A stretch of 64,000 bases of DNA, taken from NCBI GenBank assembly GCA_050084515.1, contig CM114271.1:27280001-27344000 (forward strand), given 5' to 3'. Under the pieces are notes generated by a model. That model was not told the DNA's origin. It saw only the letters and a list, made by a program, of their open reading frames with translations, and searched no databases. Shown one piece after another: positions 1 to 60,518 of the stretch (the stretch's first letter is position 1; each line of letters opens with the position of its first letter). The translations under genes and the position numbers were made by a program. This stretch comes from Blasia pusilla. Lineage: Eukaryota.

Positions 1-1209
1 AACTATTAATCAAAATATTTTCGGGGTATAATTCCCATGTTTGTCAAAAAAATAAAATTAAAAAAAGAGACAAAAATTCATGAGAATTAAATGGCAAACA
101 AATTGTATGGGAAGAGGGAAACAAAGGGAAATTAGGAAAGAAAAAAGGAAGCAAGCGAATTTAAATGGAAGGTTTTACCTAAGATTTGTACAAAGCTTTA
201 AAATGGTACATTTACAAAGAAATAAATGTGCCTATTTTAATTTTAATTTTTAAAACGTATTTAAAAATAGAAGAGCCAAAAAATTATGAAAATAAAATCG
301 GAAAAAATAGGGAAATTTCCCGAAAATGTGGAAAATTGGAGAGAAGGGGAATTTTTTATTTTTAAAAGGATATTTTATTTATAAAAATATATAAAATATT
401 AGGTTAGGGCTAGAATCAGTAGCCCAAACCTACCCTTCATCTATCTACATGTCCCGACTCTACCTGCCGCTGCCTCCTTCGTGAATCGTGCGGCCCCTAA
501 ACGCTCTCGCTCTCTCCGTCTGATCTGCGATCGGACGGCTGGGGCTAGGGATGCTGCCGCCACTGGCCCGCTTCCCCCTTCTCCCCTACCCCGCACGACT
601 CTCACTCTCCCCCGACCAATTTATGATCAGATGGGTGGGGCAAGGACGCCGCTGCTCCTGGCCCCCTTCCCCCTTCTCCAATCAACTTTCTCCCCTCCCT
701 CGTATGATCTGCGCTCAGACAGATGGGTAAGGGACGTTTCCGTCCCTTGCCCCTTCTCCCCTACCCCAATCAACTCTCACTCTGCCCCGCTCCTCCGCTC
801 TCACTCTCCTCCATTTTTCTTTTGACCTCTAGTCTCCATTTTGTGTTTTGGTCTCGTTTGTCGTGCGCATACACATCGATACACAACGTACATCGCTGTC
901 ACCCAACACACATACAAACACGCTTGATCCCATGCTAACTCATGGCATCCTAACAACGAGACAAGAAGTACTAAAATATCTCCAATAAAGTAAGATCCAA
1001 TCTCTCTCTATACCATCTCACACCATAACTCTCAAAGGTGTGCACTCTATCTCATGTCAAACCAAACCCACTCTCCTAATGAGAGGCTTGGGTTATACTC
1101 ACAAGGCAAGGGACCATAGCTCCGCCGCCTCATACCAAGAGGTTCAACAAAGAGAGAATGAGCTTTCAAGCTCTCTCTCCTTAAGGTAAATCCCTCCCCT
1201 CTCCCAAGC

Positions 1210-1530
1210 TGTCGCGCCCCTACTCTCCTTGAACATCAATCTTTAGTGTTGCGGAAGCGTGCGTTCAGTAGGTCACGAACTCATCGCCGATCTGCACCCA
1301 AACACGCACTCTCGTTAGTCGGGTTTGGCCAACCGGCGTTCCAACCCACCGAGTCCTAAACTCGGCGTCTCATCAAGCTCAACCTTCCTTAGTTCCTAGC
1401 TCCCAACACATGGCAAGTCCTTCAAGACTTGGAACAGACTTCCTGGTTAGTCCAGGGATCTGAAACGGCACTTGCACGCCTAGCGATCCCAACTGTTCAA
1501 CGGTCCTCGTGTGAGTTCCAAACCGAGCCC
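1210..1530 (-). repeat. Short 3' terminal repeat of the chromovirus (only the distal ~320 bp of the LTR)
   Basis: Near-identical to 6430-6750. Similarity stops after ACCGAG(A)CCC; the remaining ~680 bp of the LTR is absent here. Confidence 0.9.
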
Positions 1531-1802
1531 GAGTGTAATCCAACACAAGGTCCTGTTCTAGGTGCTTATCCATATACGAGCTCTCACCTCAAATACTCCT
1601 TGTCTGTCCACTTGTCGTACATTCTAAGTCTATGATGAACGACTCATAGCCATGCACTACCACATACAAATTGCAATCAACACTGGTATCGAATCTCCAA
1701 ATCCATACACTCCTTTATTGCAACACTAGCATATTCTAGTTACAACGGCCTTCGGCCCAAGATTCCACTGATTACAAGTCATGTCTCTAGCTTCTCCTCG
1801 TA

Positions 1803-4800
1803 CTAACGTATGTGCTTCGCTTGTGTTCGCTTGAAGTCACGCAACAATTCTTGCGCGTGTTCCAAATCCTCTTCCGCAATCCAAGTCGCCTCCTTCACAT
1901 GGTAGCCCTTCCATTTTACCAAGTATTCATACTTGTTGGCCCGACGCCTCGAACGTTAGATGGTCTCCACCTCGAACTCCGGCTCCTCATTTACGATGAC
2001 CGGGTGCGGTCTCACCACCTGTCTCCGCTCGAAACGTCCATTATCTTGAAGGTATTTCTTCAACAATGACACATGAAAGGTCGGGTGAATCTTGAACTCG
2101 TCCGGCAGCCTCAACGTATACACATCCTCAAACGGGTTTGTCACAATCACATACGGTCCAAAGATACTTTTGGCGGACTTCGCAAACAACTCTTTCGGAA
2201 GAGTGAGATTCTTCACACTCAACCACACTTGTTCTCCAACTTGGAATCGTACTTGGCGCCGACTCTTGTTAGCATGCTTAACGTACCTCATTTGAGCATT
2301 TGCAAGACTTCGCCTCGCGCTCTCTTCTCGTTCTCGCATCTCTACCAACAAACTTTCTGTCGTCACTTGTCGTGTTCGTGCCAATGTAGTACCCTTCGAA
2401 GGGCTAGATCAAGAGGCCCTTCGGCTCGTCCATTTGCCAGGAGAAACGGAGATTCTCTGTTGCGAATGCTTGGTCGAGTTGTAGCAAAGATTCCGCCATG
2501 CTCACCACCACCGACCCAATCGCGTTGATCAAAGACCGACATAATTCCTCAAATCGATTCACGATAGAGTTTACCTTTTCATCTGTCCATCCGCTGTGGG
2601 TGGAAAGCCGTCATCAAACTCAGCTTGGTCTTAAACCTTTCGAACAAGTGCTTCGAGAAAGCACTGGTAAACTTTGGATCCCGATCTGAAACAATGCTCC
2701 TCGGCAAACCATGCGCACGCCACCAGCTATCGAGGAATAGTTGCGCCGTCGTATACGCCGTTGCGGAATCCACCGTCGGCACGAATCTCGCCAACTTGCT
2801 AAACCGATCAACAATCACCAAGTATAGCGTTGTATCCCCAGATTTCGAAGACTCGTGATGAAATCCATACTCACACTTTGCAAGGGTCCTTCGGGATCGG
2901 CAAGGGATGCAAGCAAGCCTTGTTTCTTATCATAAGAGACTCTATTCGCTTAAGGTGTCACCACAGGTCTTCACATATTGAGCAACATCCTCCTTCATGT
3001 TGGGCCAAAAGAACCGCCGATAGAACGACTAGCGAGATTTCTCTCCTTTATGTCCGCCAAGGGTCCGTCGTGACATTCCGCTAACACCTTGGTTCGCATT
3101 TCGCCTTGCCCTACATAGATCCTCGTGTTTGAACCTTAGTAAACCGTGACTCAAACTTATGTTGGCCACCTTCTCACCCTCGCTTCAACTTCCTCGGTAT
3201 TCCCTCGCTTGAGCATCCTTCATATATCCTTCACGAATCCTTCTCTCCAGATCTGTTTCCTTAGGGAACATTGCTCTCAAGACTGTGTGTCGTCGATGGC
3301 ATGTGTTCCTCCTGCGACTTAACGATCCTGGAATCACATTATCTTTACCGGCTTGTGGATCAACTCTACATCCATCGGCGCCAAGGTATCATGCCACCGC
3401 AGATTGTTTCGGTGTCACTCGATCCTGGGTCTCAAAATACTTGAGTGATATATTATTGGTGAATACTCGAGTCCTGGTGGAGCCCTAGATAATGCCGCCA
3501 CTTCCTCAAGAAATGTACCACCGCGAACAACTCTTTTCGTGAGTAGGCCATCTCCTTTCGTGTCGCTAAGCTTCTTGCTCTCATATGCCACCGGTCTCCC
3601 TTCTTGCACCAACATTCCCGCAATCGCGAAATCACTAGCATCGATATGCACTTGAACGGTTTGTCAAACTCGGCAGCTTTAACACCGGTTCTGCGATAGA
3701 ATCTGCTTCACTCGGTTGAATGCCTCATTAACTTCCAGGTCCAAGTCGTGTTGGCAAACTTTGCCGTCAATCCGTGAGAGGTCTCACAATTCCCGAAAAG
3801 TTTTTCACATAAGTACGATAAAATTGCAACGCACCTATGAACCTCCTCATCCCCTTTACCAAGTGGATGGGGTTCCCACTCGGAAATAGCCTTTACCTTT
3901 TCCATGTCCGGTCGACGCCATCTCAGATCGACCACGTGACCCAAGAATTTGATCTTACTCCAACCAAATTCGCTCTTCTCTACATTCGCATCTGGTGATT
4001 TGCCCTTAGCTTAGACAAGACCGCTCTCACATGTAACGTGCTCCTCTAGTGACTTGAATAGATAAGTATATCATCGATATAGATGATAACATACTTATCC
4101 ATTTCCTTGTGAAAAATGGAGTTCATCAATGTGGTGAACGCCGGAGGCGCGTTACATAGACCGAAAGGCATCACTACAAACTCAAAGGAACCATATCTCG
4201 TCCCGCACGCATCTTCTCCACATCGCCTCGGCAATCCGAACTGGTAATATCCTCGACTTCAAGTCAATCCTACTGAAATATCTCGCTGCCCGACCTATCA
4301 AAGAGATCATCTATCCTTGGAAGAGGATAATTGTTCGAACCGTCACTTTGTTGGTGCACGGTAATCAACACACTGACCTCATCTTTCCATCCTTCTTCTT
4401 TACAATGAGAACAGTGCTCTATAAGGTGACTTGCTAGTCCTAATGTAACCCTTTTCCAAGAGCTCACTTAATCGCTTTTCAACTCAAGAAGTTCCTCCTG
4501 ATTCAACCTATATGGTGCTTTTGAAGGCGGTTGGGAACCGGGTATGATCTCTATCTTATGATCTACGGCTCTATGCGACGGCAATTCGTCGGAAGCTCAT
4601 TTGTCAAGACATCCTCAAACTCCTTGACCACTTCTGAAGTGGTTCTGGGACTCCCCTTGAAGCGGCGTCCGATCTCTGCAGTATCGCTTGTAGCCTCCTC
4701 CACTTGTCTCATCAAGTAGAGAAATCCATCCTCCAACTCAGTCATGCTCCTCCTTGTGATCGAGTTCACCAACTCCATCTTCGCTGGAACCTCACGGACC

Positions 4801-6300
4801 AACCGCACAGAATCGTTTGCCTTTTAGCAAGACGCTCAACCTCAATGGTCGGCGTCTTAACTCCACCTCATACGCATCTAGGAGTGTATTCCCAAAACTC
4901 CGTCAATGCCGTCCATTTCGCATACAGTGAAATTCTCCTTCAACTCGAATACCCCGCATCCTACTTTCAAACCCAAGACCAAATCAGAAGTCCGATGAGA
5001 CTTGCCTCCTACAAATCCCACTCAAATGGGCTCGTCCGCCTTAGAGGTAGACAGCCCCAGTTCCTTCACGATTCTCAAGCTTAGGAAGGAGTGCGAAGCA
5101 CCTGTATCCACGACCAACAACACATCGCGATCAGCAATCTTGGATCTTAGGTACACCAAATTGTGCGTCGTCTTGGTGACTTGAAGGGACGTCTCCATAT
5201 CGCCCGCCAACATATGCTTAGCAGCAAACGCAATCATACTCCCATTACTAACCTTCGGTTTCGAACAACCTTTCGACAGTGCCCGGTTCGCCCGCGGTTG
5301 TAGCATATGACCTTGCCGTTCCTCGTCTTTGAGTGTTGTCCTCCTTTCGCCGCATGAAGTTCCACTCGCTTTTTCTTTGCCGGGGCAGCGACTCTCGCTT
5401 CGTCTTGGCCCCACTCCAGCCTCTTTTGAACGCCTCCTTATTTTTCGACTTCTTGAAAAAAACTTTTGACTCGAAGGGTTTCTAGGTTTGGACCTCATCG
5501 TCCCCTAATCCGCTCCGCTAGCTTCGAAGGTCCGCGCAGTCTCGGCAACGTCGGCATTCGGTAAAGGGGCTTTCGGCGCTCGGCTTGAGTCCACTAATGA
5601 AGATAGCCTTCTTCGGCGTGCTCATCCATCTTCGGACTAGAAGTCGGTTTCGCACTAAACTCCCTCACATACGCGCTTAAGGAACCACTCTGCGCATCCC
5701 GACGCATTCCACCGTGTCACGCAACCCTTGGTACTCGGAGTGAACCGATCCCCAATCAACTCCTTGAACTCCTCCCAACTCGAGGTGACTCACCGCCCGA
5801 GATATTCCTCTCGTTGAGCGGTCCACCATTGTAGAGCATGATCCTTGAGAAAAGTAACGGCTATCGTCACCTTGTCTTTCAGCTTTGACCTTCTCGCGCC
5901 TCGAAATGCCTGATTCGATTCCGTAAGGAGATCCTTCACTTTCGCGAGCGCCCCACTCCAATAAATGGCGTGGCGGTTCGTCTTGCAAAGCTTTTGCCCG
6001 CACGGGTTTCGAGTGGCCTCTAACTCGGCAATCCGCTTGCTTTGCTTTGGGACATCTGCTCCACCAACACCTTCAACAAGTCCAACGCCTGGCTAGACTC
6101 CGTCCTTTCCTCGAGTTTGGGCCCACGGCCCCGCGGAAGGAGTCGCCAGGGACGTCCTCACGATCGGGCGTTCGGCTCTTGGGTCTCGACTCCTCTATAG
6201 CTTCACGGTCCGGCATTGGTTCCTCTCTCGGTTCACGCCGCTTGATTCGGCGCTTCTTGGGTTGTTCTCCTCGATCGCCATCTCCAAGCCAACTCACTCA
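1803..6300 (-). pseudogene. Chromovirus gag-pol (gag, PR, RT, RNase H, IN, chromodomain), fragmented by many frameshifts
   Basis: ORF fragments 5022-5498, 4046-4234, 3415-3651, 2579-2821 and 1956-2384. Manual translation of 1803-1955 gives EYLVKWKGYHVKEATWIAEEDLEHAQELLRDF (chromodomain). The gag boundary is approximate. Confidence 0.9.
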
Positions 6301-6416
6301 GATCTCCTCCTCGTTTCTTGCGTCCCTCCTCGAGCGTCCGAGTCTAGCCGCTACCTTAAAATTTCCCAAGCGTCCGGCTGATCCCACGACCCCAAGTTCT
6401 CACTCACCAAGGATAA

Positions 6417-6427
6417 GCTCGATACCA
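6417..6427 (-). promoter_or_regulatory. Primer binding site, initiator tRNA-Met type
   Basis: Minus strand reads TGGTATCGAGC 2 nt after the LTR end. The canonical plant PBS-Met is TGGTATCAGAGC, so one A is missing. Confidence 0.85.
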
Positions 6428-6429
6428 CT

Positions 6430-7427
6430 TGTCGCGCCCCTACTCTCCTTGAACGCGTCAATCTTTAGTGTTTGCGGAAGCGTGCGTTGATGGGTCACGA
6501 ACTCATTTCCGATCGCACCCAAACACGCACACTCGTTAGTCGGGTTTGGCCAACCGGCGTTCCAACCCACGAGTCCTAAACTCGGCGTCTCATCAAGCTC
6601 AACCTTCCTTAGTTCCTAGCTCCCAACACATGGCAAGTCCTTCAAGACTTGGAACAGACTTCTGGTTAGTCCAGGGATCTGAAACGGCACTTGCACGCCT
6701 AGCGATCCCAACTGTTCAACGGTCCTCGTGTGAGTTCCGAACCGAGACCCAAGTAATTGAGTCGCGGCGTGAAATCCAAGAGGGATATCTAAAATCGCCT
6801 CAATGGATTTGGTGCAGGTTTTCCAACCCAACGCCCAAACTCGCGTTCCGTTCCATGCCCTTGAGCGCCCTGGCGCCCAAAGTGGGGTTTGGGTTCCAAG
6901 CACTCTCGGAGACCTTCCCCCTTACTAGTACTTCTGGGGTTCTCCAATAACCCCTCCCCTTTGCGAAAAGAGGTTCGGGCCCTTCATTGTGGCCCTCAAC
7001 CCGACTCCACTTACAGTCGTTTTCGGGTCGTGTCTCGTCCGCTGCTTATGCGTTTGCAGCGATCTTTGGTGTGTTTGAACCGGCTCTTCATAAGCTTTCC
7101 AACGCACTCTTATTTGCTCCAAACGCATCTCGGCGCTAAAAGTTATGGCCATAAATACAGTCGGAAACTCTCAAACGCAAGTGGCGTTCCAAATCCGGAT
7201 CTTTCTTTTGGCAACCCACTTCCTAGACTCGACTTCTTTCAAGTCTCATTCCGCGTTTGGTCCAGGTTTCTGAGTCGCGACCATCACATGTGAAATGCGA
7301 CTTCTCGCTCGCGTCTCATCTCTTGTCTCCTCTTTGAGACAACTCCAACGCGCAAACCATCTTAGCGTGAGCCCGCTAATGTTCCGATGTTCCGCTTGGC
7401 ACTTGTTTGGTCATGAGGGTCGCGACA
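6430..7427 (-). repeat. 5' LTR of the chromovirus (998 bp)
   Basis: TG...CA with 7-bp terminal inverted repeat, flanked by the PBS on one side and the TSD on the other. Confidence 0.92.
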
Positions 7428-7724
7428 CAAGCTCTCTCCATGGTAACCTATTCTCCCAAGTCACCTCCTTGGCTCTTCACTTGATGTAGGAGGTCAAGGG
7501 TCATTTACCAAAAATAGAAAGTCAATCATATAAGTAAAATGGTACTTACCTAAAATAGTAAATTTCTCAATATGGCTCCGAATGAGCCGAAACGAAGGAG
7601 AAGCCTGCTCTCTCAGGTTTCTCGGGGCCTGAACACATCATCCTTAACCTATTGAGCGTGTCCTCCACTACCCTTGAAGGTGCTCTACTAGATCTCACCG
7701 ATCTATCATAAAAGACGTGACAAT

Positions 7725-7852
7725 TGTCGTGCGCATACAAATCGCTACACAACATACATCGTTGTCCCCGAGCACACACACAAACACGCACGATCCCATG
7801 CTAACTCATGGCATCCAAACAAGGAGACAAGAAGTATTAAAATATCTCCAAT
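7725..7852 (-). repeat. Internal 128-bp duplicate of the LTR terminus, directly adjacent to the 3' LTR (copy 1)
   Basis: Direct repeat of 859-986, separated from the LTR end at 7722 by the 2-bp spacer AT. Confidence 0.9.
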
Positions 7853-8053
7853 CGCCCCCATAATTGGTGGTTAGGTCCCTCTAACTCTAGATAGCCATCT
7901 ATCCCTACCTACCATGACATACATCTCTCGGACACTAAGAGCAAGAAGGTCGGGTGCTCATGTGGCCCCATCGTTAGTCGTCTTCCTGTCATAGAAAAAG
8001 TCGGAATCAAAACCTACCTAATATCTCCTCTATGTACATCTGGGACACATCCA

Positions 8054-11030
8054 TCATCCCCAAGGAACCCTAGTGAGAGGTGGCGTCAGACATGCCATAT
8101 GCCAACCTTGCAAACATCCATCACAGATTAGCATCGTGGCCGCACCACGGGCAGAACCACACAACATACAATGCAAACCTGTAGGAACTATTGCTAAGCT
8201 TGAATCTACTGTACCATCAATATTAGGAAGATGACATGGCGCAAAATTACGCACATGGTCCTTCCATACCATACCAGCGCGTCCCTCCAGCAAGAGAATA
8301 CCGGATGGCAAAACGTCACGTACTCTCGGGATAGTGCGCCTTGCAGTCACATCCAACGTCATCGCTGTTGTCTGCTGTAAGTAGACATAATCTCCTTGAT
8401 GAAACCTCAGGATAGTTGGTTGATAACCATCACCCCGAATAGTCGTATACCTCAACGTATCTTGATGCTGCACAATCGCCAAGTTCTCGAACGCCATGGG
8501 CATCACTCTCTGAAACAACTCAGCCCTCTGAGAATATGCTCGCATCCAAAAATCTAGGTCATCAAGGTCCAGCACCTCACCAACATCTTGACGAATGGCC
8601 ACAGGTAAATCTGGCTCTCGGCCATAAAGTAGCAAGTACGATGAAAAAGACGATAAGGATGCATGCCTCTGAATCTGTATGTCATCGCCAACCAGTGCAA
8701 CTGCAGGTCCCAATCTCCTAAGTGACCTCTCTACAAGCCATACTTGCGTAAACCCCTCTTCACCGTATGCACAACTCTCTCCGCTAATCCATCCGTCTCA
8801 GGATGATCTCGCGAAGTCGTGCGATGGTCGATCAGCGCCTGATCAAACAAGGTCTGGAACTCACCGCGAAACTCGGTACCCTGGTCTGTCAACGTCTCAG
8901 CCGGTGCACCATAATGACTCATCACTCTGTCAAGGAAGGCATAAGCTACTCCCTCACTTGCTTTGTCAAGCAATGCAACCAACTCGATCCACTTTGATAA
9001 ATGATCGACCATCATCAACACATAACGACTGTGACGCTCCGTCAAAGGCAAAGGTCCTGCAAAATCCAAATTCCATCTGTACCCTAAGCCAATGATTGGT
9101 AACGGATACAACTGCGGAGTCAGAGCATTGAACGATGCTCGGACCCGATCACACACCATGCACCTGGAAACAAATAACTGAACGTCACTCTGCATGCCTC
9201 GCCACCAATACTGAATCTGGAGCAAGCTGTACGTCCGCTTCACCCCAAAGTGACCCAACTCCTCGTGGACATGCTGCACTAGTCGTGCTCTCTGTAAAGG
9301 ATACGGCACTACACGTACTATGCCATCCTCCCAAACCCGCAAAACATGTGTCCCCTCCCAACGGAACCGTCTAGCCTGCTCTAGGATTTGATCCCGCTCT
9401 CTAGCACCCACGGTGCTCGCAAAGCTGATAGTCCGAAGGTACTCCAAGACTAATCCATCATCATGAATATCTCAGCCATCTGTCGTCTCCTCACTGGCCT
9501 TGGGATCCAAGGACTCTCCACTAGACCTCGCCATTGATGTATACACAATGTGGCTCTCCATAGCCAACATGCTTAAATAGGCTGACGCATGCCATCTTGG
9601 CACTGACTCCTCATCACTCTCTCCATGCCATCGAGCTCCAGTTGCATCTTGTTGACTCGGGCATGGGTTACGACTCAACCCATCTGCATCCTGGTTGAGC
9701 GTCCCTGGTCTATGTACCACCTAAAAATCATACTCCTTCAACAACAGAGCCCATCTCGCAAGCTTCCCTCTAAGCTTGTCGGACTCCATCAACCACTTCA
9801 GTGGTTGATGATCAGTGATGATGGTAAGGGGATTGTCGAATAAGTAACACTTGAAATGTGCTACAACCCACACTGAAGCCAAGCACCCACCCTCATACAA
9901 GTTGTACTTCACCTCTGCAGTATTGTTCGAGCGGCTAGCGTAAGCCACCACGAACTCTGTACCCTCATCATCATGCTGGATGAGCACTGCTCCAAGCCCC
10001 AACATGCTCCAATATATGTGCAACTGGAAAGGACGCCCCCTGATCGGTCTCCTCAAGATGGGCACGGACGTCAACCTGTCCTTGAGCAACTGAAATGCTC
10101 GCTCCTGCTCATCCTCCCTGTGCCACTCGTGATCCACCTTGGTCAGCAAGATCAGCGGCTTCGCAATCGAATTGAATCCCTTGACGTACCGCCGATAGAA
10201 GTTTGCCAATCCCATCAATCTGTAGGGCGTGGAATAAGTGAGATAGCCTCTACCTTTGTCTTCTGAACACCAAGGCCCGCAAGGTATATCGTATAACCCG
10301 AGTACTCAATCTGATTGCAAAAGAACTTGCACTTGCTTTGATGTAGCTTCAGCCCATGTAATTGCAATCGTCGAAACACCTCCTCTAGATGTCGCTCATG
10401 CTCCACAACCGTGACGCTAAAGACTACGATGTCATCAATATAACACCTAGCAAAATCCAGACTAGCTAAGATCCTATTCATGACCCTCTGAAACTCAGCC
10501 GGGGCATTCTTTAACCCAAATGGTAAGAATCGCCACTTGTACAAACAATTCTTCTCATGAGGATCGATGCCCCAAAATGCCATCTTCTGCATGTCCTCCA
10601 ATCTGATAGGCAACTGATGGTATCCGGCTTACAAATCCAATGAACCTTTGAGTGACCAATCGCATCAAAGATCTCTCCAGGATAGGCATGGCATACTTAT
10701 CGGACTTTGTCTGCCGATTGATAGGTCGGCAATCCCCACACATCCGTCTATCCGTCCAGTTGCCATGTACATCCGTCTTGGCGGGCATGACAGTGGCAGA
10801 TGCATACTCCCCATACGACATCTCCACTAGTCCTGCTCCAACCAAGTCGTGGCTCCTACTCTGAATCAGAGCCCTCCTATATCACTACACCTCTAGGGTC
10901 GTCAGAATATTAGCGTATCACTCGACAACTCAATGCGGATCCCCGGTCCCTTCAGCGTGCCCAAATCCTCCATGCTAAACGTAAAGCAGCTCCTATAACT
11001 CTTGAGGAACTGATGTATTCGGCGCCGCTC
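8054..11030 (-). pseudogene. pol remnant: RT - RNase H - integrase - PHD finger
   Basis: ORFs 10555-10845, 10215-10613, 9721-10218, 9472-9720, 8731-9447 and 8054-8713, separated by in-frame stops and a few frameshifts. C-terminus CMLCGSARGAATMLICDGCLQGWHMACLTPPL is a PHD. Confidence 0.93.
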
Positions 11031-11399
11031 TTCTCCTGTCAACTGAGGGCCCATATCTAGCTCCCAAGTCTCCATCGTGACAACGGTAGGACTCTCTGAC
11101 GGGGATATCGGTGGTTGCTATGGTGCAACCCCGTCTCAAACAACAACACTCGACCGCTCTCCTGTAGCCAACTGCAAACTCTGATCTCCTCCACATGGAG
11201 TGCCCAGAACCACGCTTGACATACCGACAAAACATCCCAAGAAGTCCAAGGGTGTCTCTCTTGATCTCCCCTCATGTGTCGATCTACTCAGGTCTCGCCC
11301 CCAACCACTGCCTCCACCATCTCAATAGGCATGGGGCTCACCAACGCAACTGTTGTGATCTGTCGCAATCTCATCCGACGCTCACCACTCCCAAATCAA

Positions 11400-12345
11400 G
11401 ATCCTCGTCAGCGATTCGGGTTCATCGCTCGAGCCAAGACATGGCGTCATGATGCCTCCGATCATCGACAGATCGCCATCACTCACCTCGTGGGGAAATC
11501 CCATCGCCCGCTCTCTCTCGTCGGCGTTGGGCTCCACCAACCTCTGAACCTGGTCATCCCAAACCAAACTAGGACCGGCCTTCTTATATGCATAGGAAGC
11601 GGGAAAACTCACAAATGTGGGAAAGGTTGCCCGCGGCTTGCCTACCCTGTTGACCACAGTCAACGGTGGTCGATCATCGTGCCTCACTGCCCATGAGCGA
11701 CGACCTGGATCCAGAATGGAATCCACTAACAAATGGGAGGGGCGCTCCACTCTCGCATACGCCCTATGTAAGAGCGCATGGGGCACGAAGTTGGTCCATC
11801 ATAGACGCGGGCGATGGGCTCCAGAATCCACACTCGCTGTATCCAAGAACACTGCTGGGCCGATCCAGGCACGCATCTGATGAGCACTCGTCACCTCCCG
11901 TGAACTGGAGTCTCCTAAGATCGGCACATTCTCTAGAATATAGGCTCGAGAAAAGGTGCTCATGCAACTGCCGTAAGACCCTCAACATCTCCCAAAACAA
12001 CCTGGACCGAGTGTGAGCCAACCCGTTGCCTCGTCCAGCACTCTATTGGCCCTGACATAGCCAACTCGCAATGGCCAAATCAATGGTGCCTAACCGATCT
12101 AAGTCCTGGGCCCCCAACAACGAAATATCCCTCGATAGGGAACTCTGGTATCCCTGTACCGCGCATGCAAAAAATAAGTCGGGAAAATGTAGGCGTAATT
12201 GCGCCACATGTCGTAGTGAGACGCGCCTTGCAACATCATCACTCTCCACATACATGTACTGCTGCACTCGCACTCATGCCCGCAAAATAGCAGCTAACAT
12301 GGTACTAATCCTTCCAAAGAGATCTAACACTCGAATACCCTTCTC
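11400..12345 (-). pseudogene. Retrotransposon-encoded C5 cytosine DNA methyltransferase domain (DNMT3/DRM-like catalytic motifs)
   Basis: Manual translation in order: motif I IRVLDLFGRIST (~12340-12301); II YMYVE; III RDI; IV/V DLAIASWLCQGQ*SAGRGNGLAHTRSRLFWEMLRVL (Cys codon 12055-12057); VI YILENVP (ENV 11925-11933, after a frameshift); VIII LDTASVDSGAHRPRL*WTN; IX ERERAMGFP; X-like RHVLARAM (after a frameshift). Confidence 0.9.
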
Positions 12346-12779
12346 CGGTGTACACCACACAATGGGTGTGGTATCCAAGGGTGTCATTGTAGCACTCCCT
12401 GCTACCTCGGGTTCCTCATACCTATCATGCTCCGGTGCAAATGCCTCACTCCACGCGGTTTGCACGTGCTCATCTGCCAATCATCGAAGCTCCTAAGTCG
12501 AGCCCCACAGTGGCACCTCTCCTCCACGGAATGATACGGCTACCATAACACTCCTCTCCATAGAAATTTTAGGAACATGAGTATTCTCTGCATGCACATG
12601 CCCCTCAATCAAATCCCTAGGCCAAGTGATGGCACTGCTAAATGCTGCTAAGGTCGCCATCTCTCCTGGCCCTTGCTCGATCACTGCACATGTGAATCAA
12701 ACGAATAATGAGCTAAGGCACCCATCACCTAACTACCATCTTGGTCTGTATAAGACGCTGACTCTTCCCATTAGTCCAC

Positions 12780-13150
12780 GGAAAACTCCATTGGGTATAA
12801 TCTTGCTCCACCAACCAAGACGTTGTAAGACTCTCCATTAGTCACTATCGCATTGGCTCGCACCACAGACTCATCTATAGGATATCTCGGGCGAATCCTC
12901 ACCACAACCTCCTATCAGATAATATACTGTGTGATACTCGCTCCACCTAAGGATGTTTATATCCGGAATGGACAACGCTCCACATCGGCTCTCGTCAAGC
13001 CCAATTGTCTGAATGACGCTTTCCCCAACATCAAGGATTACGCTCTAAAATCCAACAAGACGCGCTGCGTACCAAAAGTTCTACCTCCAGGACTCACCAA
13101 CTGGAAGACCTCTCCTCGGTTATCCAACAACACAACACCAGGAGAACATC
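12780..13150 (-). pseudogene. Aspartic protease remnant of the DNMT/PHD element
   Basis: Minus strand translates QRVLLDFRA*SLMLG (degraded LLDSGA) and later YNVLVG. Homology is lost beyond ~13150. Confidence 0.65.
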
Positions 13151-18838: not shown

Positions 18839-21479
18839 ACGTGCGACGGATCCTCAATCGCTCCCCGCAGCGCTTCCTGCTGGACCAAGACCATCGCCGC
18901 AGGCACCGACGCGGGCGGTAAGAGCGGGGGAGGGGGTAGAGCGACTGGATCCGAGCCCAGGCTGCTGGCGTCGGGTCGACCGACGGTTGAGGGTCGACGG
19001 CGGGCGCCACCGACCCACCGACACGTGGGAGTGTCGGGCAGGAAGGGAAGGTTTACCGCCCTGACCAGACCCGCGCTCCCGGTGAGAATTCCGTGGACTC
19101 GGAATGTGCGGTAGCCTGGAGGATGACGACCGTGAATGCTCTCCGTTGCGTTCCGTTCGAGAGGGGCACTCGCCACGCCGCCGATTCCGGGTACGACTCC
19201 CGGAGCCCGCTACTGCAGCCAACTTTGCGGGGATGACTTTGGATTTGTGCCTCCAAATCTGGTGGCGACTTTCCCCAACGCTTCCGCCTCCAATTTCACG
19301 AAGGCTTTGGCGACATCAATTTGGAGAAGATCCTGGGGTCGCGTTCCGTTGCTTGCTAACGTCCACGAGCTTTATGCGTTAGAATTGAACGAAAAAAAGA
19401 CGTGACTGTCAAATATTTGTGTACAGTCACTTTTTAAAGCATAAGAACATTTTTCTAATCTAACTATTACTAATAAATATATTCACATACATCGTATTAT
19501 ACAAATATAACTCGTGTGAATTTTTAACGCATTAATTATGGTAAGCTAACAAATAGAAGTTGCTTTCAGTTACTATTGCTAAAACCAGCAAGGTAACGAA
19601 ACTTGGCGGAGGGAAAACAACGTGGAGATTTCTCTTACTTTAAATTTACACTATCAGGGCTATTATTAAACGGTACGAAACGATAGAAAAAGCATGTAGA
19701 CTTATTAATCCTTCACTTTCCAAGAGTAGCATACTCACTTTTTGGACGTACTTAAGTCATGTCTTTTTCATAATAAAGCTAAAACTTTACGATCGGTAGA
19801 AATACGTATATACATTTTTTTAACTCACTAAACAAAAAATATCTGATTGACAACAAGATTGCTAAACTTTAGGATAATGGTCCACTACGTGGCCTGCATA
19901 CCACCTCACAAAAAATGGACCTAATTTCCACGAATGGCATGGGATGGAATTTTTCCTTTAAAAAATAATGGAAAACATGATAAGGTCATGGGAGAAATTA
20001 GAGCCTTCATATTTTGCATATGTTTTTTGGAAGGGTAGTAAAGACGGTACACACCACATCTATAAAGTAGAGTTTGATTAAGTGAATACATCTTTCCTCT
20101 CATGACTAGACACAAGCTAAAAGAAGATTTCTCTTTATATTTCGGGGCACCACGAGAGTCCCCATAAATTGGTTGGGATGCATTGATGTTTTTCAGTTGA
20201 AGAGTCTAAAAGGGACGTTCTCAACATTTTGGTGGGTTTTTCTTTTTGCAAATATATCTTTATTTCTTACCAAACTCCAATTGCTTTACACTAAATCTTG
20301 ATAATAAGGAGACGCTTGAGCCAAGATGATTGTGTAGTCATACATTTGCGTTTTATTTTTTATTTAAGTCAAGACCATGAATTTCCTTTTGGATTGTCAC
20401 ATGACGAATGGGCTCTCATGATTGACATAGAAAATGACGAAAACAAAATTAGGGAGGGGATTATGTACTTCAAACATGCTTTTTTTTACTTCTTGATCTC
20501 TTTCATGGGGCATTGTAGGATGGGAGGTGAGTGTTTCTTGTCATCTTATGGAAATAAATTATAATGAGGGACAAATAATCAAGAAAGAGGTCTTAGCCTA
20601 TTTTCATTCCCCATATGACTTCTGAAAGGGGCAACAAAGAATTTAGTAATGATCAAATGATTGGACTGTCCAAAATGAAGAAAAATTAATTGAAACGGGT
20701 CTCTTCAAGAGTTAGACAAAAAGTCCTTAACAATTGGTTTTGATGGCACAAGTACTTTGGGGTATTGGAGTGCCAAGTATGGTTATGAGATTTTGTGAAG
20801 TTGCAAAGCACTTCATTAAAGATTATATTTGTTAATGAAAGATAGCTCCTCAATCTTTGAGATAGTAGATGATCTTATAATATCTCCAAAGAGTTGAGTT
20901 CATCAATGGAAAAAGGAGATGAACGGAACGCATATCGCCTATCACAACGGATGTAGTGAATGTATAAATTATGGTTTCTTCAATTACATGCGATGATATT
21001 GATCTTCGCGAAATATCTAAATACCCAACACGTTGTGTGAAATACCCTTATCTATACCAAATTATCTAGCAAGCAAAAGTCTATTTGTGCAAAGAAAATA
21101 CTTTCAATTAAATACATGTTTTTGCTCGTAATAAAACAAGGTACACATGGCAACATTTTACAAAAATCACACATGTGGTTGATGAAAATGTTTCAAGTAA
21201 GGAATCATTGTGCATATTTACCCTAAGTCATTCTTGGAAGTGTTTTCAATACTATCATTTACAATCACACAAGAAAGGATAACCTTTTTCAATAAACACA
21301 CATAGATACCTTTGAGATAAGCAAAATGTGACTATATGGAAATCAACGAGTTATTCACATCTCCATTAACTAACATTATCTAGTCTTAAAATTTTATTGA
21401 CCTCACTTGAAGAAGAAGGCATTTTATGTGGCTGCTAGTCAACAACGCTAATCACCTCTACTATATATGCCCTATCTTG

Positions 21480-24400
21480 ATATCTAGGATTATGCTCTAC
21501 ATTTTTTAAATGAGCATATACTAATCTAGCTACCTTCACAATCAATGCTCAAACGACATCTCAAGAAGTACATGGATGTCTATCCTTCCTTGCCTTGCCC
21601 CCACCTGATTCCTCAATAGTCTCTATAAGCAATACTTGGATTAGATGGGATGGACATGGCTTGTATATCTTATATTTTAGCCAATCCCACGTTGGTGATC
21701 TATATGAGACTTCATCGCCCAACCCAATATATATCTCCAATGATGTCTCTAATAAATCCAACACCATTATCAGACTTTAAAAGAAATCCATCAACCACTC
21801 CCACATATTAATAGTAGGCTCCTCCATCCCTTGTGCTTTGTTATCCCATATCATATATAGTCTCTCTTGATGAAAGGCATGAAATGTTTGAAAAATTACA
21901 TATGTAGATAGTATTTCCCTCCCCCATCCTATTGACTAAAGCCAATCATATTCTACCATCACAAGTCACCACTTGCAATCGTTGGTTTAGATTGGATATG
22001 GCATCAATTACCAAGTGTGATGCTCGATGAACTCCATCACAAGATCCCCTCAATATCTATGATTATAGATGGTTGTTCTGTTCACCGTTTCATGGAAATT
22101 TTAACCTTCCATCATCGAGTGTGCGATCCAAGTCTTTTTGCATCTTGAAACATTGATGGTCCTAACTAATACCTCATTTGGTACACACTCGTCATGACTT
22201 GCAGACTAGAGTCACCCAAAAATTGCACATTCTCCATAATGTACATTATAGAATATATTTTATTCTTGTGCAAGTATCTTTATGCTTGCGACATCCCCCA
22301 AACCATGTTCACCCTTAGGTCAACCAAACAACCAATGAATGACTCTCACATGACCATCCAAATATAACCAAATTAATGATGCTAACAATGTCTAAATCCT
22401 CCCCCCAGAAAAATGAAACATATGCGTTCAATGTTTGTTGGTACCTATGTATTTTTGATGTGAATAAAAACTTTAGATACTACTTGACTAACCTCCCCAC
22501 ATGGCATAATGAGACTCGTTGTACAATCTCATCCCTCTCAATATTTAGATATTGACACACTTATATATTGGCTCACAACACTACATTCAACCTCGAACTC
22601 ATCCCCCCAAAGAGATGAAACACTCTCACATCCTCCTTTGGACCTTTTCCAAATGACTTGTTTGATATCCACATCACAAAAGTTTAAAGGTTTAACTTTG
22701 CTAAAATTTCAACATAAAATCTAATAATTCTAACGTTCATATTGATTTCGATATAAACTTAAATACAATAATATTAATATTTTATATCAATGAACTTTCA
22801 ACGTCAATTTTGACACAATAAAATAATTTCAATACATGAATGATATCTTAAATACATGAAACACAAGTTGCACTCTAATTGATATCAAAATGATATAGCT
22901 CCAAGTTTTATGATGCAAGGGTGTCAATATTACCATTTCATGAGCATAATTGTCATCCAACTCCTCCTAATCTAAACCAAAGACTAAGTTCTATACCTAC
23001 CTTACTAGCTCATCAATACTCATATACAACTCAATGCTCGTATCTCATGATGGTGAAGAGGTATTTTCGCCAAGATAAGGGATACACAACATGGCATATC
23101 TCTCTATGGGAATATTCGCTACATGAGCATTGTCCTCCAACAACTCTCTTGGTCAACTAACACTTTCACTGAATATTGCCAATGTGGTCAAATATCTCCT
23201 TATGTATGGACGATCACTACACCACACAAATCAAATTAGTAGTTGGCTCATCCGAACCATCACCTAATCATCATTATGTTTTGATATAGTATTTTCTCCT
23301 CCAAAAAATCAAGGATGAACCCAAGGGAGATACAAATTTTGACTTCTACCAATATAAATTTGTTGATGCTGTAATTTCATGTGTGTGCATCAATGCTCTA
23401 TCACTCAAATGCTTTGAATGGAATATGACCACCATCTCTTATCGAATCATAAATTTCATGCATGAAACACCTTCAATTTATGTCGATATGTGAAAGAGGT
23501 ATACCTCAATGTCTTCTGTCCACAACCCTAATTCCGCCCATTGGTCCCCTCATGTGGGTTAATCTTAACCCCACCTCTTGATGGCTTGGTTACTCTCGCA
23601 GCACCTCGAGTCACCACCGCAGCAGCCTAAACATGAGCCGCACTACACATAAATCCCATCCTGCAAAATCCTCACCAGCATCGTGGTAAGATATGGAGAC
23701 TGGCGACACACTAGCTAGTAGCTACTCTCAGCTCCATGTCTGCCCTTAGTTGCGTCATCATCGTGACAACAATCCTCAGCTCCAACTGATCGATGCAAGT
23801 AAGAAGCGCTGCATTGGATGCATATGCACGTCCTTCATCTCCTATGACTGGTGATGGAACTCTACCACCATGATCATCCACTTCTCGATCTCCACCAACT
23901 CTCTCGCCCCCAAGTCCTCTGCCTACCTCTCCACATACCTCCCCACGAAGATCAAAACACGTATCCCTAGTGTGACCATATCGATGACAATGATCACACT
24001 GCAATTATGGTGGGGCCATCCTAGGTGGCTCTTGAGCAATCGGATGCGCCTCCGGACCTATACCATGTTATGGGCAGTCCCTTTGCCTATGGTGGTCCAC
24101 CACATGTCCAACAAGCCCACCCTGGTCCATGCGGGGTAACATATGTTGCTACGGGTTATGGCCTTATCGGCTCACAATAGCCGCCCTGCTCTCTAGGCCC
24201 ATCGGCCCGCTCCTCCGGTACTAGTGCATGCTCGAGCACCTGTGGGTCTACTCCTACTTGTTGAATCCCGTGAAAATCCCGTGGTCACTACCTTCACCTT
24301 AATCATGTTGAGCTCTATCCGCTCAGACAACTCGAAGACCACCTTCAATGTGGGCTTCGCTGTGTGAAGCAACGTCCCATCCCGAACTCTCCTCCCTAGC

Positions 24401-25600
24401 TCATGGTCCAGCATACCGTAACAGTACTATACTGAGTACGTCTTAGTCATCCCATATGTCATAATGATCAACCGTTGCATGCGCATGAACGCCTCCCTGA
24501 GACTCTCACCCGATCTCCACTGAAAATCTTGTAGACTCTTCAACTTGTTGGTCCGCACACCATATAGCTCCTCCCCAACTGTCGGAGGAACTCCACTGTA
24601 GGACTATAACTTGGTGGTCCTCTACCACGAGAGGTCTCTGCCACCTCACCACTTGCACCGCCATCCTCTCCATCTAGTCCCCGGGATGCTGGTGTAGGTC
24701 TCTCCGCCCTCACTATCCCATCATACGCCTTGCGACCACTAGTGGACACATACCCAATACACCCTCCAGGCATCGATCTCTACTGAGTATAAAGATCGGA
24801 ATTCCATGTAGTCAACCATCGGAGGACTCTGTAAATGCTGGAACAGACCCTTACACGCCATGAAAGGGTTGAAAGTCGTAGGGGCTCAAATCTCATGGAA
24901 GTCACACCATGCGTCAAACTCCTGAATGAAATCGTCAAGATCTATGGTGCCTATTGCACTCGAGAAATGACGCATGCTTCAGTGGCCCATGTCATCCATT
25001 TCTCCCCACATATCATTGTCGCCATCTGCGATCTCATTACTTGACCCGTTGTCTAGTGATAACAATCCAGCCACAGATAGAAGTCGGGATAGTTCCTCAC
25101 TAGAAACCCCTCGATACCTCACGCCACTCCGTGTCACTCTACTACCACTGATCATACCTTCCCGTTCATCCGAACCCTAGGAGAATGTTGTGATAAAAAC
25201 CCTGTCTCACCCGCTCAAGCACTCAGACTCATTGAGAGTCTCCTACGTTCCTCACTATCTCACCTACCCTAATGCGAATCCCGTGATGTCACACCCGGCC
25301 TCGCGCACACTCAACACTCGGGCTCACCCTAAGCCTTCCAACTAACTCACCTAGACTACTGACAATGTCGGGTCACACACGCAATCCCTACTCTGCAACC
25401 GCCGTATATCTACAAACATGCTACACATGCATGGAGACTACACTCGTCACCATCGCTACACCCATCAAACACCAACAACTACTCGATATCCAACCCTCTC
25501 AATCACACAAGATAAGTACGGGAAAAGGGAGTCGAATGGGTAACTTGAACATGTCCGCCAATCTACTACACCGTCAACACTCACAGCTCCATGTGCCTTG
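21480..25600 (-). mobile_element. Old, degenerate Gypsy element related to the DNMT/PHD family (gag recognisable, pol highly decayed)
   Basis: MLDHELGRRVRDGTLL..PTLKVVFELSERIELNM resembles the gag at 48848-49816. Zinc knuckle QCDHCHRYGHTRDTC. Leader near 25510-25560 resembles 50085-50130. Faint pol-like DNA at 21480-22400. Boundaries approximate. Confidence 0.7.
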
Positions 25601-42445: not shown

Positions 42446-43476
42446 TTATTCAAACCCATCAAACGTTTTTATTATTGAAGTTCATTATTCTTCTTATAGA
42501 ATTAAAAAGGTTAATCAATTTTCTCCTTAGGAGAAGATATATGTTGGAAATAATAGTTTTTGCCATTAAATACCTTTTTACGGCCTTTACAAGTACGTCC
42601 AAATTAATATCCCTCACAGGGAGTGTGCCACATCCCGCTTTTTTGTTCTCAATGTTGATACCAGCCATGTCGACATATTACTTAAGTGGGTGATTGAAGA
42701 TTCGTCTTTTCTGATTGCATTGATGTCGAGTTTCGATGTCATTAGGGTACATTCGCGTGCAAGGATTTTTTTTCGTGTGCAAAGCTTTCGAGTGCCACAA
42801 TAGCCACGGCCATTTCCCGCTCTCCCTATTTCAAGTTTCATGCGTGAAGTTGTCCTAATTGATTGACTTTCCTTCTGTTCGATATCCAAGAACGATTGAG
42901 CCGGGTGTGGCTCGTGTGATGTTGTCCATGCGCACCTAGCCTAGCTACTACACAATTTTCGTGTAATGGCAAGGCAACGTGTTCCAACCTACTGCTACCA
43001 TAGGGCGCAATGTCCTTGACACTATTTTTTTTCACATTGTCAAGACCGACGAAGCACGAGTGTTGCTTTTCCATCTCAGTTCGCAAGTGAGTGCAATTAT
43101 ATTGGGACTTTCCTTACGTTTCTTTGCTTGCAATTCTGCACTTGTTGCTGCCTCATTTTCCTGGACGCTGCTTCTTCTAATTACACCGTGCGACGCTTTC
43201 GCTTTCTCAATATTTTTTAGCTCCATCAATTTCTGCGGTGGTTCTCCACTTTGTTTATTTGTTGTTTCGCGCCCGCTTGGTGCTTGTAATCTGCATTGCC
43301 TTATTAACATCGGTCAAGACGTTTGTGGTTTGCGATCATCATCATCATCATCGACATATGCATATTCCAATTTTGTACCATCTGTCCCCTATCTTTTTTA
43401 TTGCGTTTGAGAAATTGAGAGAGTCTTCATAGACGTAGCATCCGCTCCTTCAGGCCTATATAAGACCTGAAGGAGC

Positions 43477-44116
43477 TGTTGTGCGCATACACATCGCAAC
43501 ACAATGTACATCGCTGTCATCGAACACACACACAAACACACACGATCCCATGCTAACTCATGGCATCCATACACAGAGGCGAGAAGTACCAAAATATCTC
43601 CAATAAAGTAAGATCCAATCTCTCTTTACACCATCTCACACCATAGCTCTCAAAGGTGTGCACTCTCTCTCTTGTCAAACCAAACCCATTCTCCTAATGA
43701 GAGGCTTGGGTTACACTCACAAGGCAAGGGACCATAGCTCTGCCGCCTTATGCCAAGAGGTTCAAGAAAGAAAGAATGAGATCTCAAGCTCTCTCTCTTG
43801 GAGGTATACCCCCTTCCCTCTCCCAAGCCCTCTCAACGGTAACCTATGCTCGTAGGTCACCTCCTTGGCTCTTGACCTGCTATAGTGGGTCAAGGGCCAC
43901 TTTCCAAAGTGGAAAGTCAACTAGCAACAACATGGAAACTTACCCAAAATAGTAAGTTTCACTATATGGTTCCAAATGAGCCGAAACGAAGGGGAAACAT
44001 GCTCTCTCAGGTTTCCCCAGGCCTCAACAGGTCATCCTCGACCTCCTGGGTGTGTTCTCCAATGCTCGTGCAGACGCTTTGCTAGATCCCACCGATCTAT
44101 CCTAACAGTCGTGATA
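43477..44116 (-). repeat. 3' LTR of copy 2 (640 bp)
   Basis: TGTTGTG...CGTGATA (terminal CA mutated to TA). Aligns to 859-1209 plus 7433-7722. Confidence 0.9.
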
Positions 44117-44118
44117 GC

Positions 44119-44246
44119 TGTCGTGCGCATACACATCGCTACACAACATACATCGCTATCATCGAACACACACACAAACACACACGATCCCATGCTAACT
44201 CATGGCATCCATACACAGAGGCAAGAAGTACCAAAATATCTCCAAT
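44119..44246 (-). repeat. Internal 128-bp duplicate of the LTR terminus (copy 2)
   Basis: Direct repeat of 43477-43604; 2-bp spacer GC at 44117-44118. Confidence 0.9.
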
Positions 44247-46334: not shown

Positions 46335-46808
46335 TGTCATGCGAATCCACATCGTCATACAACATACATTGCTGATATACCATACTCACATACATACATA
46401 ACATAGACGAGAGCATCCAAAAACACAAGTGTACCACAACTGAAATCTGCGAAAGACCTACTGTCATAAAACACATATACAATCATATACAATCGAGCCA
46501 AACCCACTCCACGATGGGAGAATCAAGGTCGAAGCTTGCGGGAACCACCATAGCCAAGAGCTCTATTCACTACCAAGGCTAACTCCCAACGCAACAGACT
46601 CAACTCAAAGAACTAACTATTCTTTGAGTGCACTCCACACTATATCCTCCAACCTAAGAGCGGGCCCTACTGGAAAAGTCACCCTCAACTGAGTAATCCC
46701 TAACCCTATGTATGAAACCGCATCTCTACCTAGACACTACGGCCCTACATAAGGTATGGCCTCTACTAGCACACTATACTCTATGACATAATCTGTATGG
46801 TCATGACA
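46335..46808. mobile_element. Solo LTR (474 bp) of another family inserted in RNase H of copy 2
   Basis: TGTCATG...CATGACA with 4-bp TSD TAAG (46331-46334 and 46809-46812). The empty site GCGTAAGCCACC is present in copy 1 at ~9938-9949. Confidence 0.92.
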
Positions 46809-56900: not shown

Positions 56901-57039
56901 GTATATGCGTGAGTATATTTTGTTTACAAGTGGATCAACCCGCTTGTTGGGAAGATCAATGTCATGTGATTTAGATATGATCAACCATGTGGATTTTGTA
57001 GTGATGTGTATGCTCATGACAAAATTTTGGGAGAGGGAA

Positions 57040-57161
57040 GGGGATATACCCAAAGAGAGTGATCTTTAGAGCTCATTCTCTCTTTGTTGAATCCTAAATA
57101 AGCTATGGTTCTCCATGTCCTACGAGTAACCCAAGCCTCTCATTAGGAGAGTGGGTTTGGT

Positions 57162-57221
<60 letters not shown>

Positions 57222-60427: not shown

Positions 60428-60518
<91 letters not shown>

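Follow-up and report, generated by a model that had tools for sequence, protein, structure and literature searches.

What does a DNA methyltransferase do inside the polyprotein of a retrotransposon, and how does it come to lie in the genome of a liverwort? The question is raised by a stretch of 64,000 nucleotides of the Blasia pusilla genome (assembly GCA_050084515.1, contig CM114271.1, positions 27,280,001 to 27,344,000 of the forward strand), which we call the window and number from its first letter. An earlier reading of the letters and their open reading frames (ORFs), made without database searches and referred to here as the sequence-only reading, had proposed that the region at 11400-12345 encodes a C5 DNA methyltransferase (DNMT) carried by a retrotransposon. 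So far, dinoflagellates and a single charophyte alga are the organisms in which retrotransposons are known to bear such an enzyme, and its purpose is still under discussion. Our analysis indicates that the region is very probably the methyltransferase domain of a decayed retrotransposon with the order gag, protease (PR), DNMT, reverse transcriptase (RT), ribonuclease H (RH), integrase (IN) and PHD finger, and that this element is the land-plant counterpart of the Gypsy-DNMT3 element of Klebsormidium; how the enzyme would serve the element is something we infer.

The domain occupies 11396..12480 on the minus strand, where motifs and database matches both place a decayed DNMT3-like C5 cytosine methyltransferase, and it is spread over three frames (named here by position modulo 3 on the minus strand): frame 0 from 12480 to 11956, frame 2 from 11981 to 11496 and frame 1 from 11482 to 11231. 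Frame 0 holds motif I (LDLFGRIS, 12304-12327), where relatives have FGGIS, so that a glycine has become an arginine; motif II (YVESDD, 12235-12252; YVE(R/K)DE in relatives); the helix RSRLFWEML; and motif IV (SWLCQG, 12049-12066; GWPCQG in relatives), in which the cysteine is retained and the proline has become a leucine. Frame 2 holds an intact motif VI (YILENVP, 11922-11942; ILENVP in relatives), motif VIII (GAHRPRL*WTN, 11790-11822, the asterisk marking a stop; GSRAHRxRLWWTN in relatives) and an intact motif IX (ERERAMGF, 11496-11519), and motif X (RHVLARAMNPN, 11414-11446) lies in the third frame, frame 1. The order is the canonical one (I, II, IV, VI, VIII, IX, X). The sequence-only reading had described this order together with LC in place of PC, an intact ENV and about two frameshifts, and relocating the motifs and frames showed that description to be accurate.

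Raw reads of the same species (one Hi-C DNA run and three stranded RNA runs), mapped to 8000-18000 at 90% likeness, were compared with this copy. The first frameshift, from frame 0 to frame 2 at ~11951-11958, falls between motifs V and VI, and a short insertion relative to the window copy is present there in 231 of 256 and 205 of 268 reads of the DNA run, so that the break is private to the window copy or to a minority of copies. The second, from frame 2 to frame 1 at ~11483-11495, falls between motifs IX and X, where the high-scoring segment pairs (HSPs) of tblastn switch frame; beside it, at 11493, 1172 DNA reads depart from the window copy. In-frame stops occur at 12274-76, 12043-45 and 11799-801, with five further TGA codons within 11396-11485 (at least eight in total), and in an alignment of 13 relatives they fall where the relatives carry W, R or Q. 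With two frameshifts, at least eight stops, the change of G to R in motif I and that of P to L in motif IV, the window copy cannot yield an enzyme, in agreement with the earlier judgement that it is inactive. The damage consists mostly of C-to-T or G-to-A changes: the window copy has T or A against C or G in the reads at 253 of the 473 places listed for the DNA run and the reverse at 83 (reads differ from it at 787 places in all), a bias which indicates that it decayed mainly by these two changes.

The surroundings of the domain identify its carrier. This copy, which we call element A, is a decayed, 5'-truncated Ty3/gypsy-type element that runs on the minus strand from 13146 to 7428 and again from 1209 to 859. 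Upstream of the domain, the region 12750..13146 (minus) aligns with residues 608-739 of the Marchantia protein P0014 and corresponds to the protease; at 13041-13052, where Marchantia has the active site DSGA, it reads DFRA and then a stop codon. Pfam detects no protease in this decayed stretch. Downstream, and likewise on the minus strand, lie the RT at 10218..11066 (RVT_1, E 7e-24), which retains YIDD, passes through several frame changes and aligns with residues 696-942 of the Marchantia protein P0009 at 60-70% identity; the RH at 9730..10113 (RT_RNaseH, E 9e-30); the integrase at 8800..9294, with an H2C2 zinc finger (Integrase_H2C2, E 1e-16) and a DDE core (rve, E 4e-10); and, at the C-terminus of the integrase, a PHD finger at 8036..8170 (PF00628, E 7e-7 here and 3e-11 in a second copy, element C). 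A pol order of PR-RT-RH-IN, with the DDE integrase after RNase H, is that of Ty3/gypsy elements, and the methyltransferase lies between PR and RT on the pol strand, just where the sequence-only reading had put it. Gag is missing from element A, as homology ends at 13146; at this point 2013 DNA reads continue into unlike sequence and depth falls from ~740 to ~3, which shows that the element is truncated at its 5' end, beside the 3' end of a host gene.

A rival reading is that the DNMT stretch is a fragment of a host DNMT gene, captured by or nested in this copy alone and of no significance for the family; the decay of the window copy, its score under the Pfam threshold and the lack of the domain in element C could be read in that way. 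The copy number contradicts it. Hi-C DNA depth, both directions summed, is ~3.0 on the single-copy flank 13344-18000 but 973-1941 on the four DNMT bins, a mean of ~1440 or roughly 480 times the flank, compared with ~2300 over RT-IN and ~770 over the protease; these depths are rough owing to partial alignments and the 90% cut-off, and it is safe to conclude that several hundred copies bear the DNMT. Furthermore, a diverged element in the same window (element B) bears the domain at the corresponding position; among metagenome contigs, a scan yielded 16 loci, 14 of eukaryote type (67-80% to the relative P0003) and two of bacterial type (34% over 62 residues), and all 14 of the former carry the DNMT, with the order gag-PR-DNMT-RT-RH-IN-PHD wherever the contig extends; single ORFs in relatives span PR-DNMT-RT; and in element C the gap is a deletion, as the N-terminal part of RT and PR are gone as well. 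Far from being uniformly lacking in other copies, the domain is present in several hundred of them, in element B and in four or more genera of liverworts and mosses, and a one-off capture is refuted, with next to no probability left to it.

The breadth of the family became apparent from protein searches. The C-terminal half of the domain matched 23 longer proteins in the protein database (E 1.7e-54 to 6e-11; 58-64% identity for the best), 18 of which carry PF00145, and whose hosts include Marchantia polymorpha, Calypogeia fissa and Sphagnum, along with metagenome and Logan records. In the other direction, tblastn of the Marchantia proteins on the window gave a collinear chain of HSPs from 13142 to 11231, covering PR and DNMT (E 1e-123 to 9e-140 for the set). 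Across 13 aligned relatives the motifs are FGGIS, YVE(R/K)DE, GWPCQG, ILENVP, GSRAHRxRLWWTN, EPNADERERAMGF and RRQVLGQAMDLN, and motif IX of intact relatives reads ERERAMGF; motif IV is intact in 12 of the 13, P0011 is gapped there, and P0020 reads ECQ. The Marchantia protein P0009 unites DNMT (460-529), RT (833-919) and RH (974-1098) in a single chain, and P0163, a single ORF of 2188 amino acids with a CCHC zinc knuckle, PR, DNMT, RT, RH and IN, displays the intact form of the arrangement present in the window.

A HMMER scan with P0003 over 1.84 billion cluster representatives returned 2363 proteins with E<=1e-3, of which 793 reach <=1e-10 and 230 reach <=1e-30; many are polyproteins of 1000-3456 amino acids. 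Calypogeia, Marchantia, Riccia, several Sphagnum species and two Closterium strains are named among the matches; no vascular plant is named among the matches listed, and Klebsormidium is absent from the 20 representatives checked by species name, two of which are Closterium. The domain occurs at two positions in pol: among 161 proteins, 68 have RT-RH-DNMT-IN-PHD, 20 have PR-DNMT-RT and 73 show the DNMT only, so that among diverse representatives the first arrangement is commoner than the one in the window. A FastTree of 88 DNMT domains separates the two arrangements at one branch, with a Shimodaira-Hasegawa-like support of 95, and all liverwort, Sphagnum-like and Closterium rows are on the PR-DNMT-RT side; the tree is a quick one, drawn with a midpoint root from element-borne domains only, and 41 rows of unknown arrangement as well as rows with less than 260 amino acids of DNMT were dropped. 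The sister group with RT-RH-DNMT-IN-PHD, made up of P0020, P0161, P0164, P0182 and 64 others, comes from metagenome and Logan records. A PF00628 PHD finger stands at the C-terminus of P0020, P0025, P0164 and P0182 as well.

Which kind of methyltransferase the family carries was assessed on intact relatives rather than on the window copy. In a phmmer search of PDB, the intact Calypogeia protein P0004 matched DNMT3A (8e-11), DNMT3B (7e-10) and DNMT3C (5e-9) best, followed by tobacco DRM (4e-7), AtDRM2 (2e-4), bacterial M.HaeIII (4e-4) and DNMT2 (9e-3); M.HhaI was also matched, and neither DNMT1 nor CMT gave a match at E<0.01. The intact relative P0003 was modelled with AlphaFold2 from an alignment of 30 rows; the model reached a mean predicted local distance difference test score (pLDDT) of 80.4, with a core above 90, and all 37 rows listed by Foldseek (ranks 1-50) for this model are DNMT3A/B/C (E 3.5e-18), with template modelling (TM) scores normalised to the target of 0.77-0.84 against chains that hold the catalytic domain alone. 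The enzyme is therefore, by sequence and modelled fold, a DNMT3-like C5 methyltransferase closest to DNMT3A/B/C. DRM was rejected as a candidate: its circularly permuted order, with motifs VI-X before I-IV, is not present, and the alignment of P0004 with DNMT3A is collinear from motif I through motif X. For the family, the sequence-only proposal of a DNMT3-like enzyme that is not permuted as in DRM is thereby supported. Searches of PDB with the decayed halves of the window domain themselves gave nothing, or spurious WD40 and cadherin matches only.

Animal DNMT3A/B/C are the best matches in sequence and in fold, they have the motif order I-IV-VI-VIII-IX-X in common with the element, and the C-terminal helix of DNMT3A aligns with the motif X region of the element DNMT, but identity to DNMT3A is only 20-22%. 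Compared with cellular DNMT3 genes, including the Physcomitrium DNMT3 as described in the available part of Yaari 2019 (PMC6453930), the element DNMT is intronless and inside a polyprotein, it is without PWWP and ADD domains, and more residues separate motif VIII from motif IX. Pfam detects neither PWWP nor ADD in P0014, P0009, P0163 and P0003, where gag and PR are found upstream instead.

A correction to the sequence-only reading concerns the terminal repeats. It had called the element a retrotransposon with long terminal repeats (LTRs), a term not supported here in its canonical sense: the window holds no LTR pair of a DNMT element, and related loci show a different arrangement of terminal repeats. 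Elements A and C end in a unit of 131 nucleotides (nt; B1), a segment of ~510 nt (A2) and a second B (B2); in element C the 131-nt unit is repeated at 43474-43604 with 95% identity. In element A this 3' non-coding end (minus strand) comes in two parts, 7428..7852, with B1 at 7724-7852 and the first part of A2 at 7428-7723, which is collinear with 43824-44246 of element C, and 859..1209, with the second part of A2 at 987-1209 and B2 at 859-986, which is 89% identical to 43477-43828 of element C. Two of the metagenome loci, L006 and L013, show the full arrangement of A-coding-B-A-B, with A1 upstream of gag and B1-A2-B2 after the PHD finger (A1 against A2 86-88%, B1 against B2 88-91%). L007, L012 and L004 have a single B only, as expected from recombination between B1 and B2 or from truncation.

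Two further pieces of the window touch on these repeats. A related element has left a solo terminal-repeat piece at 56428-57353, in the opposite orientation, which contains an extra segment of ~435 nt that resembles 26124-26516. The latter stretch, which is upstream of the gag of element B, shows weak matches to 56428-57353 (74-76% over ~100 nt), and these are no more than suggestive of an A segment at the 5' end as well.

In the available portion of de Mendoza 2018 (Nat Commun 9:1341, PMC5890265) the repeat arrangement of DIRS elements is given as 'A-coding region-B-A-B', and KnitGypsy-Dnmt3 of Klebsormidium nitens is described as having this structure together with a Gypsy domain composition. 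As far as that description goes, the liverwort element resembles KnitGypsy-Dnmt3 in having a non-rearranged DNMT3-type methyltransferase inside a pol ORF of Gypsy composition; in its DIRS-like A-coding-B-A-B terminal repeats, of which the window shows the B-A-B part and L006 and L013 the whole; and in that intact copies retain the key catalytic residues and copies are partly silent or decayed. The host differs, a charophyte alga with few copies there and a liverwort with hundreds here. SymbioDIRS-Dnmt3 of dinoflagellates, according to the same portion, also has a DNMT3-like domain in pol, A-coding-B-A-B repeats and two alternative domain orders, but it has a tyrosine recombinase and a DIRS-group RT, whereas the integrase of the element described here is of the DDE type, with H2C2 and PHD fingers, and its RT-RNase H is of the Ty3/gypsy type. 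Because of the Gypsy-type pol, the DNMT3 in the polyprotein and the A-coding-B-A-B repeats, we file the liverwort family with Gypsy-DNMT3. Chromoviruses offer a looser parallel, with a chromatin-reader module at the integrase C-terminus that presumably guides insertion; there the module is a chromodomain, whereas here a PHD finger is joined by a chromatin 'writer', the DNMT.

The element thus proved to be what the sequence-only reading had taken it for, a retrotransposon with a DNMT3-like methyltransferase in a land plant, although its design was already known from KnitGypsy-Dnmt3. The further claim, that such elements are not described in land plants, agrees with our search of the full-text literature, which found no account of retrotransposons that carry a DNMT in any land plant, liverworts and mosses included, supplements and subscription journals lying outside its coverage; six Marchantia gene identifiers of our matches occur in no paper that it covered. 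In its available portion de Mendoza 2018 makes no mention of Marchantia or liverworts, and a 2025 paper in Molecular Biology and Evolution (PMC12344493) and a 2026 preprint (10.64898/2026.05.21.726589), in the parts accessible, write 'streptophytes (Gypsy-DNMT3)' solely in citation of the 2018 study. Bryophyte sequences may already be present in the supplementary trees of de Mendoza 2018 and PMC12344493. What is new here is the host range in land plants, the large number of copies together with their transcription, and the fact that the wider family comes in two arrangements.

Several observations weigh against this identification or limit its reach. Taken as read-throughs with X at the stops, the window copy stays below the PF00145 cut-off of 22 bits (12.6 bits, E 0.09, for its N-terminal half; no match for the C-terminal half), and searching Pfam with the domain's five raw ORF fragments gave no PF00145 match; a search for this family was thus negative for the window copy and positive for intact relatives (27.5-46.1 bits), and its failure is explained by decay, since the intact relatives pass. 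No intact full-length copy from Blasia pusilla was among the sequences seen, and the 14 metagenome copies have all decayed, their ORFs reaching 332 amino acids at most. A search of the window for a 5' repeat A1 similar to the 3' repeats found in A, B and C was negative at E 1e-2, because A and C are 5'-truncated. A lineage shared with KnitGypsy-Dnmt3 would rest on common design rather than phylogeny, the two having been compared by description, and activity in yeast is reported, in the available portion of PMC5890265, for the dinoflagellate DIRS-type enzyme and not for the Gypsy type. Finally, the ratio of nonsynonymous to synonymous substitution rates (dN/dS) points to weak constraint on the DNMT: among 14 decayed metagenome copies its median is 0.61 (interquartile range 0.56-0.70; 88 of 91 pairs passing filters), no better than gag-PR (0.675, 63 pairs) and above RT-RH (0.36, 35 pairs), in values that come from a tblastn-guided codon alignment, are biased downwards and mix selection in active lineages with later neutral decay. 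All that the ratio shows is a DNMT no less constrained than gag-PR. The persistence of the domain and its motifs, in place, across liverworts, Sphagnum and Closterium is the stronger argument for constraint.

Transcripts show that the family is not silent. RNA depth is 3-32 over the DNMT and 40-68 over IN-PHD, and RNA covers the element almost only in the orientation of the neighbouring minus-strand spliced host gene, whose introns appear as CT..AC joints in 35-80 RNA reads. Most element RNA reads are 90-95% like the window copy, which indicates that sister copies, and not the window copy, are transcribed in sense.

In intact copies the DNMT would be translated as part of Gag-Pol. Its position between PR and RT suggests that it would stay with the RT and travel with it into the particle or pre-integration complex. 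The enzyme would then methylate the new double-stranded cDNA de novo, possibly also DNA at the insertion site, and the PHD finger of the integrase would read histone tails to select that site. That the enzyme methylates the element's own cDNA in cis is a tentative proposal, to which we give somewhat less than an even chance. As payoffs, the available portion of de Mendoza 2018 (PMC5890265) discusses mimicry of host DNA, protection from deamination, shaping of chromatin at the insertion and self-restraint.

A rival explanation is that the enzyme of intact copies acts in trans, with the DNA of the host or of competing transposons as its target and not the element's own cDNA, for instance by setting methylation around insertions or by methylating de novo where the listed host enzymes are without a DNMT3. 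Hundreds of copies exist and are transcribed, a DNMT freed by the protease would be loose in the cell, and accidental genome methylation by such enzymes is discussed in the 2018 paper (PMC5890265, available portion). Moreover, the DNA methyltransferases listed for Marchantia in the accessible part of Schmid 2018 (PMC5784723) are five, MET, CMTa/b and DRMa/b, yet Marchantia has many element-borne DNMT3-like genes with intact motifs. On the other hand, a location in pol between PR and RT suits co-packaging better, and RNA per copy is low, as the depth summed over hundreds of copies amounts to about that of one host gene. We therefore consider action in trans unlikely. Equally doubtful, in our estimation, is the wider proposal that in liverworts including Marchantia polymorpha hundreds of transcribed retrotransposon DNMT3 genes, some of them intact, supply de novo methyltransferase activity; this would either mark the element's cDNA beforehand, so that insertions come in methylated, or extend to the host genome.

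Less likely again is that something other than DNA methylation explains why the domain is kept, be it methylation of RNA or a structural or DNA-binding function within the polyprotein. In the available portion of de Mendoza 2018 (PMC5890265) a LINE-type retrotransposon DNMT is reported not to methylate DNA in yeast, with RNA proposed as its substrate, and both the modest constraint (dN/dS 0.61) and the ECQ in place of PCQ in motif IV of one branch of relatives (P0020) would fit such a role. Motifs I, IV, VI, VIII, IX and X are nevertheless kept across liverworts, Sphagnum and relatives on the Closterium side, and the nearest solved structures are the DNA enzymes DNMT3A/B/C, with the tRNA enzyme DNMT2 far lower. 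The cis proposal, methylation of the element's own cDNA, remains our preferred one.

The range from Closterium to bryophytes and the two positions of the DNMT in pol argue for an old, mobile toolkit of DNMT and PHD finger, a 'writer plus reader', over a recent capture in Klebsormidium. Under the wider proposal that we consider doubtful, the lineage would be ancient, common to Closterium and probably Klebsormidium, and the DNMT would have moved between two pol positions; land-plant DNA methylation would possess an element-encoded arm that was overlooked because its genes are filed as hypothetical proteins. Since such elements abound and are transcribed in a liverwort, and Marchantia, Riccia, Calypogeia and Sphagnum have them too, the question of what such enzymes do moves to land plants. 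Marchantia is a transformable model with good methylomes, and the role of transposon DNMTs is testable there. On a more practical note, surveys of bryophyte 'DNMT3' genes may count transposon copies.

The window also records part of the history of the family. Element B, at 21477..25017 on the minus strand, is a more diverged remnant of the same kind, with gag at 25017-23531, a heavily decayed DNMT at 22641-21477 in the same relative position, after gag, and no RT. It is AT-rich through decay, and tblastn places residues 2-470 and 878-1261 of P0014 there; the DNMT pieces of element A match it at E 6e-17 and 3e-12, with 35-47% protein identity, and this genome has thus harboured two or more subfamilies of elements with a DNMT. 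Element C, at 43474..49816 on the minus strand, belongs to the same family as A and has gag, RT-RH-IN-PHD and B1-A2-B2; it is 86% identical to A in nucleotides over RT-IN, with PR, DNMT and the N-terminal part of RT deleted. Elements A, B and C are all on the minus strand.

Element A is split by a nested and unrelated Ty3/gypsy LTR retrotransposon, element D, at 1210..7427 on the minus strand, which is not part of the DNMT element. Element D has TG..CA ends with inverted termini and is flanked by a 5-bp duplication, CAAGC, at 1205-1209 and 7428-7432; its stretches 1210-1534 and 6430-6754 are 95% identical, with only the first 325 nt of the two LTR positions matching, and it encodes gag, a protease and an SH3 domain of the Tf2 type. 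In each of the four retroelement copies the coding strand is poor in C, with a GC skew of about -0.2 on the plus strand. CpG observed/expected does not set the DNMT elements apart, being 0.75 in element A and 0.75 in the whole window; values for the DNMT elements range from 0.55 to 0.75, not below the 0.42 of the adjacent host gene.

The sequence-only reading had also taken the genes of this genome to be land-plant-like, and a RING-type host ORF (PF14570) of 409 codons at 38653-39882 on the plus strand bears this out: its best matches are in liverworts, Calypogeia fissa (E 8e-111) and then Riccia sorocarpa and Marchantia polymorpha, at 56-60% identity, followed by Sphagnum, ferns, lycophytes and seed plants. 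By its genes the host is therefore a liverwort, distinct from the species with annotated genomes. Next to element A, a host gene at 14400-17800 on the minus strand, with introns seen as RNA joints, was named ribulose-phosphate 3-epimerase-like by eye from its exon translations. A joint from 16981 to 17494, with non-canonical ends and three unplaced letters, is found in 38-51 reads per RNA run and may reflect a micro-exon of 3 nt or an alignment artefact. A LINE-type reverse transcriptase remnant was identified by eye at 34000-36600 on the minus strand, and a long (GT)n/(GA)n microsatellite lies at ~60400-60700, inside an ORF upstream of a rhodanese-like stretch.

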